Shown: positions 2,807 through 46,147 of the stretch, in pieces
How the letters are laid out: every line of letters begins with the position of its first letter
Numbering within the stretch: position 1 is the first letter of the stretch
IMG/VR virus record: IMGVR_UViG_3300046163_000033
Coordinates: 5,521-69,520 of that record
Source of the DNA: a virus
Strand: one strand, 5' to 3'
Length of the DNA stretch: 64,000 nucleotides
Made by a program: the position numbers and the translations under genes
Notes under the pieces: model-generated
What the model saw: the letters and a program-made list of their open reading frames with translations, nothing else
What the model was told of the DNA's origin: nothing
Databases searched by the model: none

Positions 2807-4534
2807 ATGCAAGTAAACAACACGGAGATTAATGGATTTTTAATCGACCAGTTTAACCAACACAATTTAGATGTAGGAAAAACGCAGGGGATTTGTCCCC
2901 TGTGTTCACATGAGAGGAAACCTAAAAATCAAAAAGCTAAATGTGCTAGTTACGATTGGGAACGAGGTTTGGGTACTTGCCATCATTGTGATTCATCATT
3001 TCAATTACATACGTATCAACGTAAAGGATCGTCTGAGAAGACATATATACGTCCTAATGCATTAAACGTTGTAGACCCAAAACAAATAACGTCTAAGGTC
3101 TCGAAATGGTTTGAGTCCCGTGGAATATCTCAGAAAACCCTCGACGATCTTATGGTCACAGAGGGTCCTGAGTTTATGCCACAGACCGGCAAGTCCGAGA
3201 ATACAATTCAGTTCAATTATATAATAGGCGATGAGTTAATCAATGTTAAATACAGAGATGGTCGTAAGAATTTTAAGTTATATAAGGGTGCTGAAAAAAT
3301 ATTTTATAACATAAATAGTATAGTTGGGTATGACACTTGCGTTATAACCGAAGGCGAAATGGATGTGTTAGCATTGCATGAGGCTGGAATTAAAAATGCA
3401 ATATCAGTACCTAACGGTGCAACTCTAAACTCTAACAACTTAGATTATTTAGATAACTGTATAGATTACTTTGAAGATAAAGAAAGAGTAATACTAGCTT
3501 TAGATGATGATGAACCAGGTCAAGCTTTGCAACAAGAACTTATTAGACGTCTTGGAGCTGAAGTTTGTTTTTTAACTACATTTGAAGACTGTAAAGATGC
3601 TAATGAATATCTTATTAAATACGGTAAAGATAAGTTAGTTAATCGTATTGAAGGTGCTAGACCTGTGCCATTAGAAAACGTAACCACATTAAAAGATATA
3701 GAAGATGAAATCACAGACTTTGTTAAAAACGGTTTCAAACCTGGTTATCAAATTGGCATACCTAATTTTGACAGCATTTTTAGTACTTATACTGGTCAGT
3801 TTATCACTGTCACTGGCATACCTAGTAGCGGAAAGTCAGACTTCGTTGATCAAATGGTAGTAGGGTATAATCAGAGATATGAATGGAAAACAGCCTTTGC
3901 ATCTCCTGAAAATGCTCCTACATATTTACATGCTCATAAGTTAATGAGGAAAGTTTGGCAAGATATGCCTACAAGAAATGATATTGGTACTGATAAATGG
4001 AATCAAGTTGCTGAACATGTTAATGATAACTTTTTCTTTATTGATATGGAACGATATACTCTTGAATCTGTATTACGTAAAGGCGCTGAGCTTGTTAAAC
4101 GTAAAGGTATTAAATGTCTTGTTATAGATCCTTTTAATAAAATTAGAGATGTTGATTGTAAGACTGAAGATGTAAACAGATATACAATGGAATATCTAAC
4201 TAAGATTGAAACGTTTGCAAAGAAATATGATGTATTAGTTTTTATTGTAGCACATCCAACTAAGATGTACAGAGACAAAGATGGTAATATTGAAGAGCCT
4301 ACAATGTATAACATTAAAGGTGGTGGTGAATGGTATGATGCATCTTATCACGGTATATTAGTTCATAGAAACTATGAAGAAAAAACTGTAAAAGCTAAAA
4401 TACTTAAAGTTAAGTTTCAAAACTTAGGTGAAAACGGAGCTGAAGCTCATTTTAAATGGGAACCTAGATCAGGTTGTTTTGTTCCACACATCTTGCCGAC
4501 TATGGCTGAAGACGAAGCAATGCCTTGGGATTAA
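2807..4534 (+). CDS. Bifunctional primase-helicase (T7 gp4/Twinkle-like)
   Basis: Zn finger CPLC...CHHC, TOPRIM ITEGEMD and LALDDDEPG, KDANE, Walker A GIPSSGKS, LVIDPFN, IVAHPTK. Confidence 0.93.
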   Translation: MQVNNTEINGFLIDQFNQHNLDVGKTQGICPLCSHERKPKNQKAKCASYDWERGLGTCHHCDSSFQLHTYQRKGSSEKTYIRPNALNVVDPKQITSKVSKWFESRGISQKTLDDLMVTEGPEFMPQTGKSENTIQFNYIIGDELINVKYRDGRKNFKLYKGAEKIFYNINSIVGYDTCVITEGEMDVLALHEAGIKNAISVPNGATLNSNNLDYLDNCIDYFEDKERVILALDDDEPGQALQQELIRRLGAEVCFLTTFEDCKDANEYLIKYGKDKLVNRIEGARPVPLENVTTLKDIEDEITDFVKNGFKPGYQIGIPNFDSIFSTYTGQFITVTGIPSSGKSDFVDQMVVGYNQRYEWKTAFASPENAPTYLHAHKLMRKVWQDMPTRNDIGTDKWNQVAEHVNDNFFFIDMERYTLESVLRKGAELVKRKGIKCLVIDPFNKIRDVDCKTEDVNRYTMEYLTKIETFAKKYDVLVFIVAHPTKMYRDKDGNIEEPTMYNIKGGGEWYDASYHGILVHRNYEEKTVKAKILKVKFQNLGENGAEAHFKWEPRSGCFVPHILPTMAEDEAMPWD

Positions 4535-4794
4535 TGGCTTGGCGTAAGAAAAAAGTTTACGTTGAACCACCTGAGTGGACCGATGAAGATACTGAAGCTT
4601 ATTTATGGTGTGTAAATCACGGTATCAAAATAGGACCATTTGCAGCTAGTAATGATTATGATAATTATTATTGGTGGATTGATGTAGAAGTTAACGGAGC
4701 TAAAAAACGATCACCATTTAAATACGATGGTAGACAAATTAACAAAAAGATATTTGAATTATATAGATTTTATTATGACAAAAACAAAATTTAA
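4534..4794 (+). CDS. Hypothetical protein
   Basis: ORF whose ATG overlaps the primase TAA (TAATG). Confidence 0.65.
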   Translation: MAWRKKKVYVEPPEWTDEDTEAYLWCVNHGIKIGPFAASNDYDNYYWWIDVEVNGAKKRSPFKYDGRQINKKIFELYRFYYDKNKI

Positions 4795-5422
4795 AACAGC
4801 AAGCGATGCATTTAATTATTTTTTTCCAATAATAATGTTTGAAGGAGAAAAGTTTGATAATACTAGAGCTTTATTTAATGTAGGTTTTTATATAGAAAAT
4901 CCTATGGATAATCATATACTAGCTAAAAACAGAAAATGGAGTCATGAGTATGCAGAAGCTGAATGGCAATGGTACTTATCAGGTGATCCTAATATAATTA
5001 AACTAGGACAAATATATGGTAAGATACCACCGATATGGGAACGTATGGCTGATAGTGATGGTAATGTTAATAGTAATTACGGTTATCAATGGGAACGTAA
5101 TCATCAATTAGATTATGTTGTAGCTAAATTAAAAGATAATCCTAACACAAGACACGCAGCTATTAGTATATACGACTGTAAAGAATTTAAAAAATACCGC
5201 AAGGATACACCTTGTACGTATGCAGTTCAGTTTACAGTATTAAATAACAAACTAAATATGTCAGTTGTGATGCGTTCTAATGACCTCTGGTACGGTTTCT
5301 GTAACGATCAGTATTGTTTTTCAATGTTACAACAATTAGTTTCAGAGAGGACAGGATATGAGATCGGTACTTATTACCACTTTGCACATAACTTACATTT
5401 GTATAACGATAAAATAACATAA
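4775..5422 (+). CDS. Thymidylate synthase-superfamily enzyme, most like dCMP hydroxymethylase (T4 gp42 type)
   Basis: EAEWQWY, IPPIWERMADSDGNVNSNYG, DTPCTYAVQF, MRSNDLWYGFCND, HNLHLY. Asp occupies the position of the ThyA specificity Asn. Confidence 0.8.
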   Translation: MTKTKFKTASDAFNYFFPIIMFEGEKFDNTRALFNVGFYIENPMDNHILAKNRKWSHEYAEAEWQWYLSGDPNIIKLGQIYGKIPPIWERMADSDGNVNSNYGYQWERNHQLDYVVAKLKDNPNTRHAAISIYDCKEFKKYRKDTPCTYAVQFTVLNNKLNMSVVMRSNDLWYGFCNDQYCFSMLQQLVSERTGYEIGTYYHFAHNLHLYNDKIT

Positions 5423-5423
5423 T

Positions 5424-6194
5424 ATGTATTATTTATACCACATACCAGGTAAAAAGATAGGTGTTACACGTGATCTTAATACTCGTGTTACATTAATTCA
5501 GGGCTATAGCTCTAGTGAATATGAAGTTCTTGATCAGTCGGACGATATAGATTATATATCGGACAAAGAGATAGAACTTCAAAAGTCTTATGGCTATAAA
5601 GTAGATAGAAAGAAATATAAAAACCTTTTTAAGAAAATGAAAATAAACGTAACAGAACAAACTTCAACTTTTGCAGTTCCTTTAAACAAATTAAAAGGAC
5701 ATCTTATGGATAATATGAATATGAAATGGGATACATCTCACGGTAAGTTCTACATAGATATGCAAACAATACAATGGATAATGGATAACGCTAAAGTTTC
5801 AATGTATAATGATAAGAGATCTTACATATACAATAAAGCTTTTGCAGAGTACTTTAAAACTAATACAATTATGGAAATACCAGACTATAATAAAAGTCAG
5901 GTTATGTTTGATAAAATTAGAACATGGGCTTATGAAAGAGGTTTATATGAAAAAGGAAATCCTATGGTACAGTATGTTAAACTACAGGAAGAAGCTGGCG
6001 AGCTAGCTAAAGCTTTATTAAAAGATGATCAACCAGAAGTTATAGATGCTATTGGTGATATGGTTGTAGTGTTAACTAACTTAGCTCATCAACGAGGTGT
6101 TTACATTGAAACATGTATACAGTCTGCATATGAAGTTATAAACCAAAGAACAGGTAAAATGATTAACGGAACATTTGTAAAAGATGAAGATTAA
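5424..6194 (+). CDS. Multidomain protein: GIY-YIG-like N-terminus plus C-terminal MazG-like NTP pyrophosphohydrolase
   Basis: N-terminal YYLYHIPGKKIGVTRDLNTR; C-terminal WAYERGL, KLQEEAGEL, DAIGDMVVVL, AYEVINQRTGKMINGTFVK. Confidence 0.75.
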   Translation: MYYLYHIPGKKIGVTRDLNTRVTLIQGYSSSEYEVLDQSDDIDYISDKEIELQKSYGYKVDRKKYKNLFKKMKINVTEQTSTFAVPLNKLKGHLMDNMNMKWDTSHGKFYIDMQTIQWIMDNAKVSMYNDKRSYIYNKAFAEYFKTNTIMEIPDYNKSQVMFDKIRTWAYERGLYEKGNPMVQYVKLQEEAGELAKALLKDDQPEVIDAIGDMVVVLTNLAHQRGVYIETCIQSAYEVINQRTGKMINGTFVKDED

Positions 6195-6468
6195 AACAGA
6201 AGATAAGATAGTACAGGCAGTACTAAGGAAGATGGACCAACGTAGTTTAATAGGCCAGAAAAAATATGGAGCTACAATGATGCAAGAAATTGAAGGTCAA
6301 GAAAAAGATTTAAATAGATTTTTAATTGATGTACAAGAAGAATTAATGGATGCATTATTATATATTGAAGCAGCTAAAAGATGTTTACAAGATGAGATAG
6401 AAGAGGTTGCATACAATAGGTTTACTAAAGATGTAACTAATATAAACGTAAATGAAGAAGTCTTATAA
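6184..6468 (+). CDS. Small all-alpha NTP-pyrophosphatase-like protein
   Basis: GQKKYG...VQEELMDALLY acidic helix motif. Confidence 0.5.
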   Translation: MKIKTEDKIVQAVLRKMDQRSLIGQKKYGATMMQEIEGQEKDLNRFLIDVQEELMDALLYIEAAKRCLQDEIEEVAYNRFTKDVTNINVNEEVL

Positions 6469-7073: not shown

Positions 7074-7218
7074 ATCAAAACAATGGGAGTTATCAGCTGG
7101 AGTGTTTCCAGGTATACTCTTTGGAATAAGAAGTTATGAAGACGGAGATTTTCAAGTAGATCACGTTTTATATTTAGGAATATTTGATATATGTTTAACT
7201 CTATACTATGAAGAATAA
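7066..7218 (+). CDS. Small hypothetical protein
   Basis: MGKSKQWELSAGVFPGILFGIRSY...; overlaps the nrdB start. Confidence 0.55.
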   Translation: MGKSKQWELSAGVFPGILFGIRSYEDGDFQVDHVLYLGIFDICLTLYYEE

Positions 7219-8197
7219 TATGAACGTACCATTATTTACAGAAAGAATACCGTACAAGCCTTTTGAATATCCTGAGTACTATACCGAGGGTTGGTTAAAG
7301 CAAGCTCAAGCGTTTTGGTTACATACTGAAATACCTATGAGTGGTGATGTTAAAGACTGGAATGAAAAATTAACTCCAGAAGAAAAAAACTTAGTAGGTA
7401 ATATACTATTAGGTTTTGCACAAACAGAATGTGCTGTGTCAGATTACTGGACACAAAAAGTTGTTGGCTGGTTTCCTAAACATGAAATACAACAAATGGC
7501 TATGATGTTCGGCTCACAAGAAACAATACACGCAGTAGCATATAGTTATTTAAATGAAACTTTAGGTCTTGAAGATTATGAAGCTTTTTTACACGAACCC
7601 GCTACAGCTGCTAGGTTTGATAACCTTGTAGCTTACGAAGGCAATGATCCTGTAGGTATAGGTAAATCATTAGCTACGTTCTCAGCTTTTGCTGAAGGGG
7701 TTAGTTTATATTCTGCCTTTGCTGTATTATACAGTTTTCAAATGAGAAACCTATTAAAAGGTATTGGCCAACAAATGAAATGGTCTGTAAGAGATGAATC
7801 ATTACATAGTAAAATGGGTTGTCAACTATTTAGACACATGTGTTCACAAATACCAGGATTAAAAGAAGAATGTAAAGAGCATGTATATGATGCAGCTTTA
7901 ACTATGCATAATGCTGAAATGACTTATATATCTAAGTTATTTGAAATGGGTGATATTGAAGGAATAACAGAATATGACCTTAAACATTTTATTAAAAAAC
8001 GTACAGGTGATAAACTTAAAGAATTGGGCTACAAAGCAGAAGGAAAATTTAAATTTGAATATGACCAAAAGTCAATTGAAAAAATGGCTTGGTTCGATCA
8101 TCTTACTGGGGGTCACACTCACACTGATTTCTTCGCTATTAGGCCGACTGACTATAGTAAAGCAAATGAAGGCGAAGACTTTGAAGATGTTTGGTAA
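7208..8197 (+). CDS. nrdB: Ribonucleotide reductase class Ia beta subunit
   Basis: FWLHTEI, QETIHAVAYS, AEGVSLYSAF, RDESLH and TDFF diiron/tyrosyl motifs. Confidence 0.95.
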   Translation: MKNNMNVPLFTERIPYKPFEYPEYYTEGWLKQAQAFWLHTEIPMSGDVKDWNEKLTPEEKNLVGNILLGFAQTECAVSDYWTQKVVGWFPKHEIQQMAMMFGSQETIHAVAYSYLNETLGLEDYEAFLHEPATAARFDNLVAYEGNDPVGIGKSLATFSAFAEGVSLYSAFAVLYSFQMRNLLKGIGQQMKWSVRDESLHSKMGCQLFRHMCSQIPGLKEECKEHVYDAALTMHNAEMTYISKLFEMGDIEGITEYDLKHFIKKRTGDKLKELGYKAEGKFKFEYDQKSIEKMAWFDHLTGGHTHTDFFAIRPTDYSKANEGEDFEDVW

Positions 8198-8214
8198 TAA
8201 TAAAATTAAATAAT

Positions 8215-8442
8215 ATGAAAGAAAGTAAATTAATAGAGATGCAAAATAGAATAGCTAATTTAGAGGCTATATTTAAACAGTTAATACCTGAATTAAACGG
8301 TATAAAAGATTTATCTTTTGGTGTTTTTGATACAATAAAATTAATGCCAGGTTATGAAGATGCTATAACTCAATTAAAAATTAAATCTGATGAAGCTAAA
8401 GCTAAATTAGAAGAAAAAAAGTTTGAAACAGATGTGGAATAA
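8215..8442 (+). CDS. Hypothetical coiled-coil protein
   Basis: ORF between nrdB and nrdA. Confidence 0.55.
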   Translation: MKESKLIEMQNRIANLEAIFKQLIPELNGIKDLSFGVFDTIKLMPGYEDAITQLKIKSDEAKAKLEEKKFETDVE

Positions 8443-35493: not shown

Positions 35494-37693
35494 CTAATTA
35501 ATAATTTTTGAATTATAACCTTCGTTGTATACTTTACTAAAGTTTAACTAACTTTTTCTTTACTAATCGGCACAGGTTTATATTTATTTTTATTGCAAGC
35601 CATATAGCTAAGCCAGAGCTAATAGATGCATCGTGTTTTGTTCTTTTGTTTATATCAAATGCAGCCCAATCTTCTAATGTTCTTTGAAAATACATTGTAC
35701 CATATTGTTCATTGTTATAACCAACAAACATTTCAATATAAGATTCAATAGCAGCAGCATGAGCTTGTTTAACATCTTCACTAGAATTAGGTATACCACC
35801 TATTTCTTTTTCTGTAACAGATAATTTATGCATTGTTTTATCTGGTCTATTCATAGAGTAACCTCTGTAACCTCTTCTTTTAAAATGATATAACAATCTT
35901 GGCTTATTGTTTTCTGCGAGTATAGGCATACCATAAAATATACAAGCCATGAGTACATCTTCAAAAAATATTTCTGCAGTTTGAGGTCTAGCTATATATT
36001 CTAAAAAAAATAAATTAGGAGGCGCATCTTCCATGCTAAACTTAGTTAAACCGTGTAAAGATCCTTTTGATCCTCTACCATCTACTGTTCCTGATATATC
36101 ATAGCTATCACATCCAAAAGCTCCCATATGATCATTGCCAGGATATTTTCTATTATTTTTAACAAGTATTCTATTTTGTTGGTTTATATTTGGTATCCAT
36201 GAAACAAGAAATCTACCTTGTTTACTTGGTACAAACATAACTGTTGTATCTTGTATTCCTTCTTCCCACTGAAAATTACCCTGTGTGACAACATTAGAGT
36301 GTTTTAAATCTTCATTATAATCTATTTGCTCGTATATTTTTGTTAAATTAAACAAAGATTGTTTTGTTTCATCTCTGAATGCGTGTTTCTCAGTACGTGG
36401 AAACTGTCTATATAATTCATTAAGTGCATCAGGATCGTCCTTAAGACCTTCTACTTCATTTTCCCAGTGCTCGATAACACCGATTTCAATGGGGAAAGCC
36501 ATCTGGCCCTTCTTTAGGTTTTTGCGGTGTCTCAAAGACAGGTAATCCATAAGAATCAATGTATCCTTCGTAATTCCACTCCATAGGAATGAACAAGCTA
36601 TATAATCCCGAGCTAGTCTGCCCATTGCGGTTTCTTCTGGTAACGTCTGAGTCATCATATAATTTTTTATAATTTCTACCTCCTTTATCTAAAGCATTTG
36701 ACGTTGATCCCATCATACACTTACCTATAATTCTAGAACCTAATCGTAAACAAGTTTTTGTAACTCTCCAGTTATTTAATATATTGTCAGGTTTTTCCCA
36801 CTTACCAGATTCATCGTGTACAAGTAGTTTTAATTTTTCACCATCATAACTGTTATCTCCTGTATTTTTCCAGTCAATAGTTGTATCTAATCCTTCTAAT
36901 TCTTCTAACTGTTCGTTGCTATCTAGTTTACGTCTTGTAAATCTACTAGCTGGAACTCTGTATGCAAGTTCTGTTTTTGGCCGATCCATACCGTCTTGAA
37001 TCGGCTTGAAGAAAAACGGATAGTTGACGGAAATTGGTACGATTTTATCGGTAAACATTTTCTTTGCATCAGCCCCAGACTTTGATAAGACACCGTATCT
37101 AGCATCACTAGAGATAGTGGCAAGGTTGACAGTTTCGCCTGATGCCATGAATGAAAAACCAGACCGTCTGTTTTTGAGGTAGCACATTCCGTAGCAACGT
37201 TTATCTGCTTTACAAGCTTCCCAGAATATAAAGAATAATCTGTTTGCTTCTCTAAAATCTGCTTGCCCAACATCAATCTTGGACCACTGCAGGTACATGT
37301 AATGAGTACCAGTAATATAAGTAGCTTTACCTTTATTAGTGAACCAATAGCCTTCGTGGCGCCTAGCAAATTCTCTATCAATATATGCATACCATTTTTC
37401 TTTAAAATCATCTGGATATTGTTTCCAGTCAAATATTGTTTTAATCTTTTTTAATGCTTAGGATACTCGTGTACTTGCCACTTGTCGTAATCCTTGTTAA
37501 CATCTTTTTCTTTTGGTAATGCTATTTTAAGATTTTGTATTTCATAAACCTCACCTATCTGACCAGTTTTAGATATAACAATAACATCATGTTCTTTGTT
37601 ATAACCATACTCCCACTTTTTAGATTTGTTTAATCTTTTTATTACATGTGGTTTTATGTGGTCAATTACTTTATATAATGTTTGCTTATACAT
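35494..37693 (-). CDS. Terminase large subunit (several frameshifts)
   Basis: Walker A LKNRRSGFS, Walker B LLVHDESGKW, MGSTSN, and nuclease motifs GCDSYD, ENNK, HDASISSGLA. Confidence 0.88.
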
Positions 37694-44609: not shown

Positions 44610-46147
44610 TAATTCTAAGATTATTAATTACACAATCAGTTGATAAAATAGTAGTAGCTACAGATGCTGCATTTTTTAAAGCGCTTTTTGTGACAAGTAA
44701 AGGATCAATAATCCCTGACTCAATCATATTTACCATATTTCCTGTAACAACATCTAATTCCATCTCCCAATTCTTTTGGTGCTTGGTAATCTGTGATACC
44801 AGCATTACTTAGAATTGTTTTAAACGGAGCTTGAATCGCTGCATATAAAACTTTTTGACCTTCACTATGTGGAAATAATTTAGAAGCATTTAATAATGCA
44901 ACACCACCACCAGGTACAATACCTTGTTTAATTGCTGCTTTAGTAGCACATATAGCGTCTTCTATTCTATCTCGTTTTTCTTGTAATTCAATTTCTGAAT
45001 TAGCACCTACTTGAACAATAGCAACTTTACCAGATAGTCTAGCTAATCTTTTTTCATTTTTAACTATAATAGCAGGTATTTTAGTTTCAGCAATAGTATT
45101 TTTAATTTCATTAATTAAATCTTTTACTTCTTGAGTTGTTTCACCTACTTGTATAATTGTTTCTGCTTCACTAGATACAGACTTTAAACATTGACCTAAC
45201 TGTTCTGGTTGTATTAAATCTATATCATCTCCTAAGTCTTCATTTATAATTGTAGCTCCTGTAAGCAAAGCAAGATCACGTAGTGTTTCTTTTTTACTAA
45301 TACCGTATGTAGGTGCATCAATTATATTAACTTTTATATTGCCTTTAATTTTATTCATAGCTAATGCAGACATTACTTGTGGTTCTGCATCACCTATAAT
45401 TAATAAAGACTTGTTATTTTTAATAACATATTCTAGTACACTTTGTATTTTTCTAATATTATCTATCTGTGATTCAACTAATAAAACTAATGGATTATCT
45501 AGTTCAGCTGTTTTAATATCTTGATTAGTTACAAAATGTATATTTTTTAATCCTTTATCGTACTGTATACCATCAATAACTTCAAAGCTTGTCTCTGACA
45601 TTTCTGTTGTTTCCATCATTACTACACCATGTTCACCAACAGATCTAAATGCATCGGCTATAATTTTACCTAGCTCTGGATCGTTATTTGTAGAGATAGT
45701 AGCTACTTGATCAATCATTTCACCCTTAACAGGTATTGCTACAGTTTCTAAATATTCTACACAGCTTTATCTGTTGCTGTTCTATAGCTTTTTTAAATCT
45801 CTAGAGTTTTCTTTTGTTGCAACTTTATAAGCTTCTTCTAAAATAGCATGAGCTAGAACTGTTGCAGTGGTTGTACCATCACCAGCTTCTCTAACTGTTT
45901 TTCTAGCTGCTTGTCTTAATAATGTTGCTCCCATATTTTCTACAGGATCTAATAGTGTTATAGCGTCAGCTACTGTTACACCATCTTTTGTTATAATAGG
46001 TTCACCGGTTTGATCTTCTAACATAACACACTTACCACTAGCTCCAAGAGTGGAGCTAACGGCTTGTGTAAGTTTTGTAATACCAGCAAACACATTGTTT
46101 TTAGCATCAGAACCAAAGTTCAGATTCTTTACAATTGCATTTGACAT
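44593..46147 (-). CDS. groEL: Chaperonin GroEL (two frameshifts)
   Basis: [74 protein letters not shown]; no GGM tail. Confidence 0.93.

Follow-up and report, generated by a model that had tools for sequence, protein, structure and literature searches.

We analyzed a 64,000-nucleotide stretch (here called the window) of the IMG/VR virus record IMGVR_UViG_3300046163_000033, comprising bases 5521-69520 of this 69,520-bp record. It contains a thymidylate synthase-like (TS-like) gene which is directly followed by a gene for a fusion protein with a MazG domain. The best explanation for this pair, and one we consider fairly likely, is that the TS-like protein is a deoxycytidine monophosphate (dCMP) 5-hydroxymethylase of the T4 gp42 type, that its MazG partner is a dCTPase acting on deoxycytidine triphosphate (dCTP), and that 5-hydroxymethyl-dCMP is made at the nucleotide level. 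Judged from the sequence, we have good confidence that the TS-like protein is a cytosine-specific hydroxymethylase of the gp42 type, belonging to a new marine lineage of short and very widespread proteins. Virion DNA with modified cytosine is plausible. Family membership, signature residues, their conservation and the gene linkage were computed here; from these we infer the substrate and the product of the enzyme, the substrate of the MazG domain and the modification of the virion DNA.

The TS-like gene (4775..5422, + strand) encodes a protein of 215 aa. An alternative ATG is located at 4727, and homologues are mostly 213-216 aa in size. The match to PF00303, the thymidylate synthase family, was far above chance level, with an E-value of 1.1e-28 and 100.6 bits (cut-off 24.3), and covered positions 44-215 of the 266 in the profile. 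Its closest solved relatives in a PDB search were T4 gp42 (1.5e-18), then MilA (2.2e-18) and then ThyA chains. The protein stops five residues past the HLY motif (end HLYNDKIT) and is without the C-terminal tail of ThyA. The initial annotation had assigned the gene to the cytosine-type members of the thymidylate synthase family and placed it in a non-T4 phage. Both assignments are supported by our data, T4 gp42 being the best solved relative and the full gp42 signature being present. The three peptide strings quoted at that time were all found in the translation of 4775-5419 (+), and the T4 gp42 string MRSNDVVFGFRND was confirmed in the PDB alignment. The E. coli ThyA string ending in RSCDVFLGLPFN was found in the alignment with the TS-like protein.

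The signature residues were compared in an alignment with T4 gp42, RB69 gp48, SPO1 gp29, E. coli ThyA, the homologue of Enterococcus phage VPE25 and other references. The TS-like protein carries E63, S100, Y102, D144, C147, T148, R167, S168, D170, D178, H208 and Y210; the counterparts in T4 gp42 are E60, S94, Y96, D145, C148, T149, R168, S169, D171, D179, H216 and Y218. The two proteins are identical at 12 of the 12 catalytic positions compared. The equivalents of ThyA C146, R166 and S167 are kept (C147, R167 and S168), and the protein has Asp at the sites of ThyA Asn177 and Leu143 and Thr at that of His147. Among the references, SPO1 gp29 differs from the TS-like protein by Asn at 147 and 177 and RB69 gp48 by Asn at 169.

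Three of these residues bear directly on the predicted chemistry. D178 is the base-specificity Asp (T4 D179, ThyA N177). At ThyA position 177 (E. coli numbering) Asn reads deoxyuridine monophosphate (dUMP) and Asp reads dCMP (PMC13326640; PMC8670742). Furthermore, Asp177 in metaviromes accompanies contigs experimentally selected for cytosine modification (PMC8670742). D144 is located within the motif KDTPC, three residues before the catalytic Cys, where methylating ThyA has Leu and hydroxymethylases have Asp or Glu (PMC13326640). S100 is located within the motif NSNYG, two residues before the catalytic Tyr; it corresponds to T4 S94, a position at which the published T4 work expects Ser or Thr in hydroxymethylases, and aligns with Pro in ThyA. 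Published work on the T4 dCMP hydroxymethylase demonstrated that Asp145 and Ser94 hold the substrate water and that the D145N mutant yields no product. The T4 enzyme was also described there as having no ThyA C-terminal tail.

The conservation of these features was analyzed in the 80 best IMG/VR loci (66-96% identity, 69 distinct sequences). The TS-like ORF (open reading frame) was intact in 80/80 loci and the short C-terminus was kept. Additionally, 13 key residues were invariant in all 80 loci with the exception of His127, which was Gln or Arg in 14 of them. In total, 567 related stretches were found in IMG/VR. The protein search yielded at least 8000 scored matches, of which the best 120 (71-98% identity) were mostly 212-228 aa long (range 172-245) and originated from JGI, ENA, Tara and NCBI. 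An exhaustive representative search resulted in 45 clusters at E<=1e-30, and the D/C/T/D/D pattern was present in 105 of 117 full-length cluster representatives (the 150 best minus 33 under 190 aa).

A tree was calculated from 11 references and the 45 best-ranked of the 117 representatives, leaving out 72. Here, the TS-like protein of the window grouped with L054, L072, P0121 and P0136 with a Shimodaira-Hasegawa-like approximate likelihood ratio test (SH-aLRT) support of 100. This clade was nested in a group of 41 rows which includes gp42 (SH-aLRT 93), and SPO1 gp29 and RB69 gp48 were placed elsewhere. Public metagenomes of seawater and marine viruses contain near-identical DNA in 21 runs from 15 studies, in each case as contigs, which cannot show base modification; three additional Illumina raw-read runs of the same study are not part of the index. 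The cassette was covered by contigs of four public runs, and none of the seven listed insertions or deletions was located inside 4775-6468.

The second gene of the pair (5424..6194, +) encodes a protein of 256 aa composed of three parts. The AlphaFold model (mean predicted local distance difference test score, pLDDT, 84) shows these as aa 1-60, aa 74-148 and a helical bundle of aa 155-240. The C-terminal domain (5886..6194, +) is a MazG domain, an all-alpha nucleoside triphosphate pyrophosphohydrolase, and is the candidate dCTPase. It matched PRA-PH (PF01503) with a score of 27.3 (cut-off 21.3) and MazG (PF03819) with 22.7 (cut-off 22), and 32/32 family members matched as well. Its PDB profile match was 1vmg (1e-07), and Foldseek matched MazG, HisE, DCTPP1 and S-2L MazG-like chains with a TMt of up to 0.77. 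The PHROG 1992 "MazG-like pyrophosphatase" spans aa 64-225 of the fusion. The acidic residues E189, E190, E193, D208 and D212 were invariant in 32 sequences.

Among the loci with sufficient downstream DNA, the fusion gene was located directly 3' of the TS-like gene in 78/78, including five with a different gene order. The initial annotation had noted a MazG domain after the TS-like gene, and this tight linkage is supported. We propose a dCTPase role because of this linkage and because thymidylate synthase and PRA-PH domains co-occur on contigs enzymatically selected for modified cytosine (PMC8670742). It is probable that the MazG fusion hydrolyses dCTP.

The N-terminal domain (aa 1-60; 5424..5603, +) has a beta-beta-alpha-beta-alpha topology at pLDDT 87-94 and possibly belongs to the GIY-YIG superfamily (T5orf172/MUG113-like). 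Weak Pfam matches to T5orf172 and MUG113 were found in 12/32 and 9/32 family members with best E-values of 0.0024 and 0.005, respectively, and neighbours of the fusion in the protein atlas carry T5orf172. We take both to be families of the GIY-YIG clan. Foldseek gave no match to aa 1-60. The middle domain (aa 74-148; 5643..5867, +) is of alpha/beta type in a confident AlphaFold model; it had no match in Pfam, PDB or Foldseek.

By analogy with the T4 enzyme, Cys147 would attack C6 of dCMP, and Asp178 would read and protonate the N3/N4 face of the cytosine. The one-carbon unit would come from methylene-tetrahydrofolate. Asp144 and Ser100 would then position a water molecule, so that the exocyclic methylene is hydrated and no hydride is transferred, giving 5-hydroxymethyl-dCMP as product. 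The GIY-YIG-like/MazG fusion would convert dCTP to dCMP. This hydrolysis would both feed the hydroxymethylase and keep plain cytosine out of the phage DNA, which is the job of gp56 in T4, here done by an unrelated-looking protein. Deoxynucleotides would be provided by the ribonucleotide reductase of the phage, and phosphorylation and incorporation of the product would be left to host enzymes or to an unrecognised phage protein.

This kind of system is already known from T4, VPE25 and MetaGPA contigs. T4 gp42 (PDB 1b49, 1b5d, 1b5e, 6a9a, 6a9b, 6l18) has catalytic and specificity residues identical to those of the window protein; both share the motifs NSNYG and MRSND..GF.ND, and both are without the ThyA C-terminal tail. 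However, the identity over the alignment is only 26%, the sizes differ (246 and 215 aa), and R124, R177 and R220 of gp42 are His, Cys and Asp in the window protein. T4 gp56, a dCTPase/dUTPase which removes dCTP and yields dCMP according to the T4 record annotation, is the proposed functional analogue of the MazG fusion, with which it has no detectable sequence similarity; the fusion has 256 aa in three domains. Unlike T4, the 69.5-kb marine phage encodes nothing that can be recognised as a gp1-type kinase, a homologue of gp56, a glucosyltransferase or a phage polymerase.

Members of the MetaGPA network (Yang et al., eLife 2021, PMC8670742) are likewise found. In that network, thymidylate synthase, PRA-PH and DNA ligase domains occur together on contigs selected for modified cytosine, and PF00303 with Asp177, PF01503 and PF01068/PF14743 are all present in this genome. 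The last is an ATP-dependent DNA ligase which, together with a Pyr_excise-type glycosylase, is encoded upstream of the window. Of the other network domains, a dCMP deaminase was searched for and is not in this phage, and no carbamoyltransferase was among the proteins scanned.

The homologue of Enterococcus phage VPE25 is 35% identical over 96% of the query and has the D/C/T/D/D signature as well, including Ser and Tyr. It is larger (281 aa) and belongs to another tree clade than the window protein. A nucleotide pyrophosphatase-type gene is located directly downstream in VPE25 as well; it is annotated as dUTPase and is not MazG. Two genes from the VPE25 synthase homologue lies a T4-like beta-glucosyltransferase (b-gt), and VPE25 has a second sugar enzyme. 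The DNA of VPE25 is cytosine-modified by experiment: Duerkop et al. (mBio 2016, PMC4999554) describe it as bisulfite- and MspI-resistant and cut by PvuRts1I. RB69 gp48 and DLP3 gp80 (Lee et al., NAR 2026, PMC13326640) belong to the same fold family as the window protein, likewise have a short C-terminus, and carry both the cytosine-type Asp and, three positions ahead of the Cys, an acidic residue. They differ by Asn at ThyA 169 and the use of flavin and O2 (PMC13326640), the window protein having Asp170. In the literature searched, no paper was found which describes the TS-like/MazG cassette in phages of marine Flavobacteria.

In three related loci, L054, L050 and L072, the TS-like/MazG pair is found in a different context. 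Their TS-like proteins are 71% (L054) and 70-72% (L050, L072) identical to that of the window. Upstream of the pair (L054:2391-6017, L072:2456-6017 and in L050) a gene cluster encodes a DUF6378 protein, a 315-aa protein, an unknown 300-aa protein, a PLP (pyridoxal phosphate)-dependent enzyme and an unknown 186-aa protein. The first ~100 residues of the 315-aa protein resemble the N-domain of the T4 beta-glucosyltransferase (hhalign 87%, E 4e-6), the motif NFFGG being common to both, and the match to the VPE25 b-gt was 82% by hhalign. The C-terminal half has invariant GDSHS and GNIDIRFH motifs. The family comprises 324 homologues at E<=0.001, with no Pfam domain among the 120 listed; PF09198 appeared below cut-off in 7/24 members. 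PDB sequence and profile searches with the L054 protein as a putative glycosyltransferase were empty, and the likeness is supported only by hhalign and for the N-terminal ~100 residues. By its sequences, the cluster has the look of one for hypermodification that starts from a 5-hydroxymethyl pyrimidine, and this context of the related pairs, like that of the VPE25 homologue, speaks for the hydroxymethylase explanation.

Other relatives carry further genes of possible interest. A JmjC-domain protein (~270 aa; PF08007 1.8e-15) and a small cupin (~115 aa) are encoded downstream of the ribonucleotide reductase alpha gene in L023, L027-L033, L035, L055, L057 and L058; the window does not contain them. 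The cultured Bacteroides phage BF486P2 (L002) has two thymidylate synthase-family genes (5156-5917 and 7989-8669), each of which encodes Asp at the specificity position as well as three positions ahead of the Cys. One of the products is 48-49% identical to the window protein, and the other is very divergent with Leu for the conserved Glu58. The gene downstream of the BF486P2 synthase was considered as a MazG gene and rejected.

Several findings weigh against the hydroxymethylase/dCTPase explanation. First, searches of the whole genome revealed no deoxynucleoside monophosphate (dNMP) kinase (neither a match to the thymidylate kinase family nor a small ORF with an N-terminal P-loop), no DNA polymerase of family A or B and no glycosyltransferase (neither a T4 beta-glucosyltransferase nor a homologue of the L054 b-gt-like protein). 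T4 and RB69 use a dedicated dNMP kinase (PMC13326640). The initial annotation had reported no kinase or glycosyltransferase for the window, and as far as family and P-loop searches go this can be extended to all 69,520 bp of the genome. A kinase or transferase that escaped recognition may nevertheless be encoded, since about half of the ~90 ORFs are unannotated and only ~45 were scanned against Pfam or PHROGs. Second, the MazG domain does not by itself imply a dCTPase because its type is widespread in phages, with matches in 1125 phage records, for instance of Streptococcus thermophilus, Staphylococcus and Flavobacterium phages. In Foldseek, MazG, HisE, dCTPase and a MazG-like enzyme directed at deoxyguanosine triphosphate were about equally good, and the fusion as a homologue of T4 gp56 was rejected (BLASTP E 0.64, hhalign probability 1.9%). 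Third, the position of ThyA R127 is occupied by His in the TS-like protein. Finally, the tree suggested in the initial annotation did bring gp42 and the window protein together in the 41-row group, but its deep nodes are weak: deep branches are long, 25 of 53 inner branches have a support under 80, and the gp42 grouping itself reaches only an SH-aLRT of 93.

A further point of this kind comes from hexamer palindromes, of which 64 were tested genome-wide (Bonferroni limit about 8e-4). The three most depleted ones all contain cytosine, with P<=1.4e-4: GATATC (1 observed, 19.5 expected), GGTACC (4 and 19.8) and GGATCC (0 and 8.9). The AT-only palindrome TAATTA was likewise under the Bonferroni limit, and the overall depletion was equal for C-containing and AT-only words (0.86 each). 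This suggests that some restriction enzymes can, or once could, recognise the cytosines of the phage. It argues against fully shielded cytosines, because fully masked cytosines would not need avoidance. Taken together with the missing dNMP kinase, the depletion of C-containing palindromes weighs somewhat against a full replacement of cytosine. CCATGG was also absent with 6.5 sites expected, and together these depletions form a restriction-avoidance pattern in a phage that is predicted to modify cytosine.

These data lead to the strongest alternative, which we regard as unlikely: 5-hydroxymethyl-dCMP (or a modified CMP) could be made without bulk substitution in the DNA, the modification being partial or transient, the product serving another use or the host pool being reshaped. 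The lack of a recognised dNMP kinase, family A or B polymerase and glycosyltransferase as well as the three depleted palindromes speak for it, as does the CMP hydroxymethylase MilA scoring like gp42. However, unglucosylated 5-hydroxymethylcytosine (5hmC) leaves some restriction enzymes unblocked, and with such an incomplete block avoidance and modification can coexist. The cassette is also part of a replication and ribonucleotide reductase module, invariant in 80/80 loci, and related pairs adjoin a beta-glucosyltransferase-like gene. Moreover, host kinases may suffice, since expressing just a related synthase in E. coli was enough for trace incorporation (PMC13326640).

A bolder version of the hydroxymethylase/dCTPase explanation is, in our view, distinctly unlikely. 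It states that an abundant group of marine Flavobacteria-type phages swaps cytosine for naked 5hmC using only two dedicated genes and that the GIY-YIG-like domain has a role like that of endonuclease II in T4. The two products, a mini-hydroxymethylase lacking the tail and a fusion of a nuclease-like part with MazG, would then do this work without a kinase, glycosyltransferase or polymerase of the phage. The GIY-YIG-like domain would cut unmodified host DNA, and the fusion would couple the breakdown of host DNA and the removal of dCTP to the supply of dCMP for modification.

The initial annotation had left the product open between 5-hydroxymethyl- and 5-methylcytosine, and here only the first part is favoured. 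A dCMP methyltransferase with 5-methyl-dCMP as its product, of the kind found in Xanthomonas phage XP12 and in ThyA Asn177Asp mutants, appears quite improbable to us, even though Asp177 alone makes ThyA a dCMP methylase (PMC13326640; PMC8670742). The hydroxymethyl product is favoured over the methyl product because Asp144 and Ser100, where ThyA has Leu and Pro, are tied by the published T4 work to hydration and not to hydride transfer. Furthermore, the protein is without the hydrophobic C-terminal tail by which ThyA closes off its site for hydride transfer. For these reasons of sequence, 5-methylation as well as 5-hydroxylation by the TS-like enzyme are disfavoured. A reservation against our preference is that the choice between methyl and hydroxymethyl follows from published residue rules, no 5-methyl-dCMP synthase being among the proteins compared.

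An ordinary thymidylate synthase, which converts dUMP to deoxythymidine monophosphate (dTMP), is what the public labels indicate: as the initial annotation had foreseen, JGI and PHROGs both name the protein "thymidylate synthase". This label is in line with the PF00303 match, and the gene is the sole thymidylate synthase-family gene in an AT-rich phage (about 33% GC) with a ribonucleotide reductase, a second thymidylate synthase and ThyX being absent from the whole genome. Nevertheless, we consider this function very improbable. The three ThyA residues Asn177, Leu143 and His147 are exchanged, the C-terminal tail is gone, and all eight NCBIfam thymidylate synthase matches, each of equivalog type, are far under their cut-offs (17-86 bits at cut-offs of 108-576, e.g. 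86 at 327). The public label of these genes is thus probably wrong. Scarcely credible is a flavin-dependent 5-hydroxy-dCMP synthase like RB69 gp48, with which Asp177, the acidic residue three before the Cys and the short C-terminus are shared, since the Asp169-to-Asn change that marks such enzymes (PMC13326640) is absent, Asp170 being present in 80/80 loci, and since RB69 gp48 is located in another part of the tree.

The strategy as such has been textbook knowledge since T4, and earlier publications have already described how it is spread in metaviromes. If the hydroxymethylase/dCTPase explanation is true, a common group of ocean phages would contain 5hmC. This would have a bearing on the ecology of restriction and anti-restriction in Flavobacteria-type hosts. 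It would also affect virome methods which assume plain cytosine, for example conversion with bisulfite or enzymes, certain steps that rely on restriction, and the base-calling of nanopore reads. Additionally, the two enzymes would offer a compact means of producing 5hmC nucleotides.

The third gene (6184..6468, +) encodes a conserved helical protein of 94 aa and was located after the MazG fusion in 72/77 loci. According to the family alignment, its invariant residues include RS..G..KY and QEE.MDA.LY, the copy of the window having QEELMDALLY. The initial annotation had considered it a second EELxD protein of the nucleoside triphosphate pyrophosphatase type. The motif is indeed present, but without similarity in profile or fold, and the pyrophosphatase assignment was rejected on all lines followed. 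Neither the protein of the window nor any of 30 family members matched a MazG-clan Pfam family, the PDB profile search had no match at E<=10, and Foldseek had none with the AlphaFold model (mean pLDDT 68.6). In hhalign, the probability against the MazG family was 0.6%; the PHROGs matches were of unknown function only, and the protein atlas gave no relation.

The record is rated 100% complete by CheckV, and the GC content of the phage is about 31-38%. The synthase-like gene is part of a replication/nucleotide module on the + strand in the start region of the window, in the order sigma factor, split Erf-like gene, exonuclease, primase-helicase, small ORF, TS-like gene, 256-aa gene, 94-aa gene, DUF1064 resolvase-like gene, ribonucleotide reductase beta and alpha. 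The TS-like/MazG pair thus lies inside the replication module, in the context of the primase-helicase (2807..4534, +), which shares 42% identity (tblastn) with the DNA primase/helicase of Cellulophaga phage phi10:1. A host within the Flavobacteriia is probable on this sequence evidence, because the relatives of the primase-helicase belong to phages of Cellulophaga, Riemerella, Tenacibaculum and Flavobacterium. The ribonucleotide reductase beta subunit (7208..8197, +) matched PDB 9dws (4e-50) and 6cwo (1e-42), and the alpha subunit (8423..10156, +) matched 6dqw (3.5e-147). We take these to be class Id ribonucleotide reductases of the Flavobacterium type, which fits a Flavobacteriia host. On the minus strand, the remainder of the window encodes structural and lysis proteins and tail fibres.

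Some minor observations concern other genes. The Erf-like single-strand annealing gene (1038-1543, +) is present as two overlapping ORFs (1038-1370 and 1313-1543). This split probably reflects a variant in homopolymer length or an error of the assembly, because the gene of relatives is one ORF of 170-186 aa and contigs in 3 of the 4 public runs aligned to the window have one extra A after position 1305. The large terminase region (35537-37432, -) is divided among three ORFs that overlap (35537-36658, 36486-37298 and 36923-37432), which may be due to a frameshift, an intron or an assembly error. ORF 35537-36658, the only one scanned, matched the C-terminal part of the TerL profile (positions 412-728 of 758). 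Finally, a 332-aa protein (44720-45718, -) matched the PHROG "chaperonin groEL" with an E-value of 2.8e-71 over profile positions 145-475 of 540.

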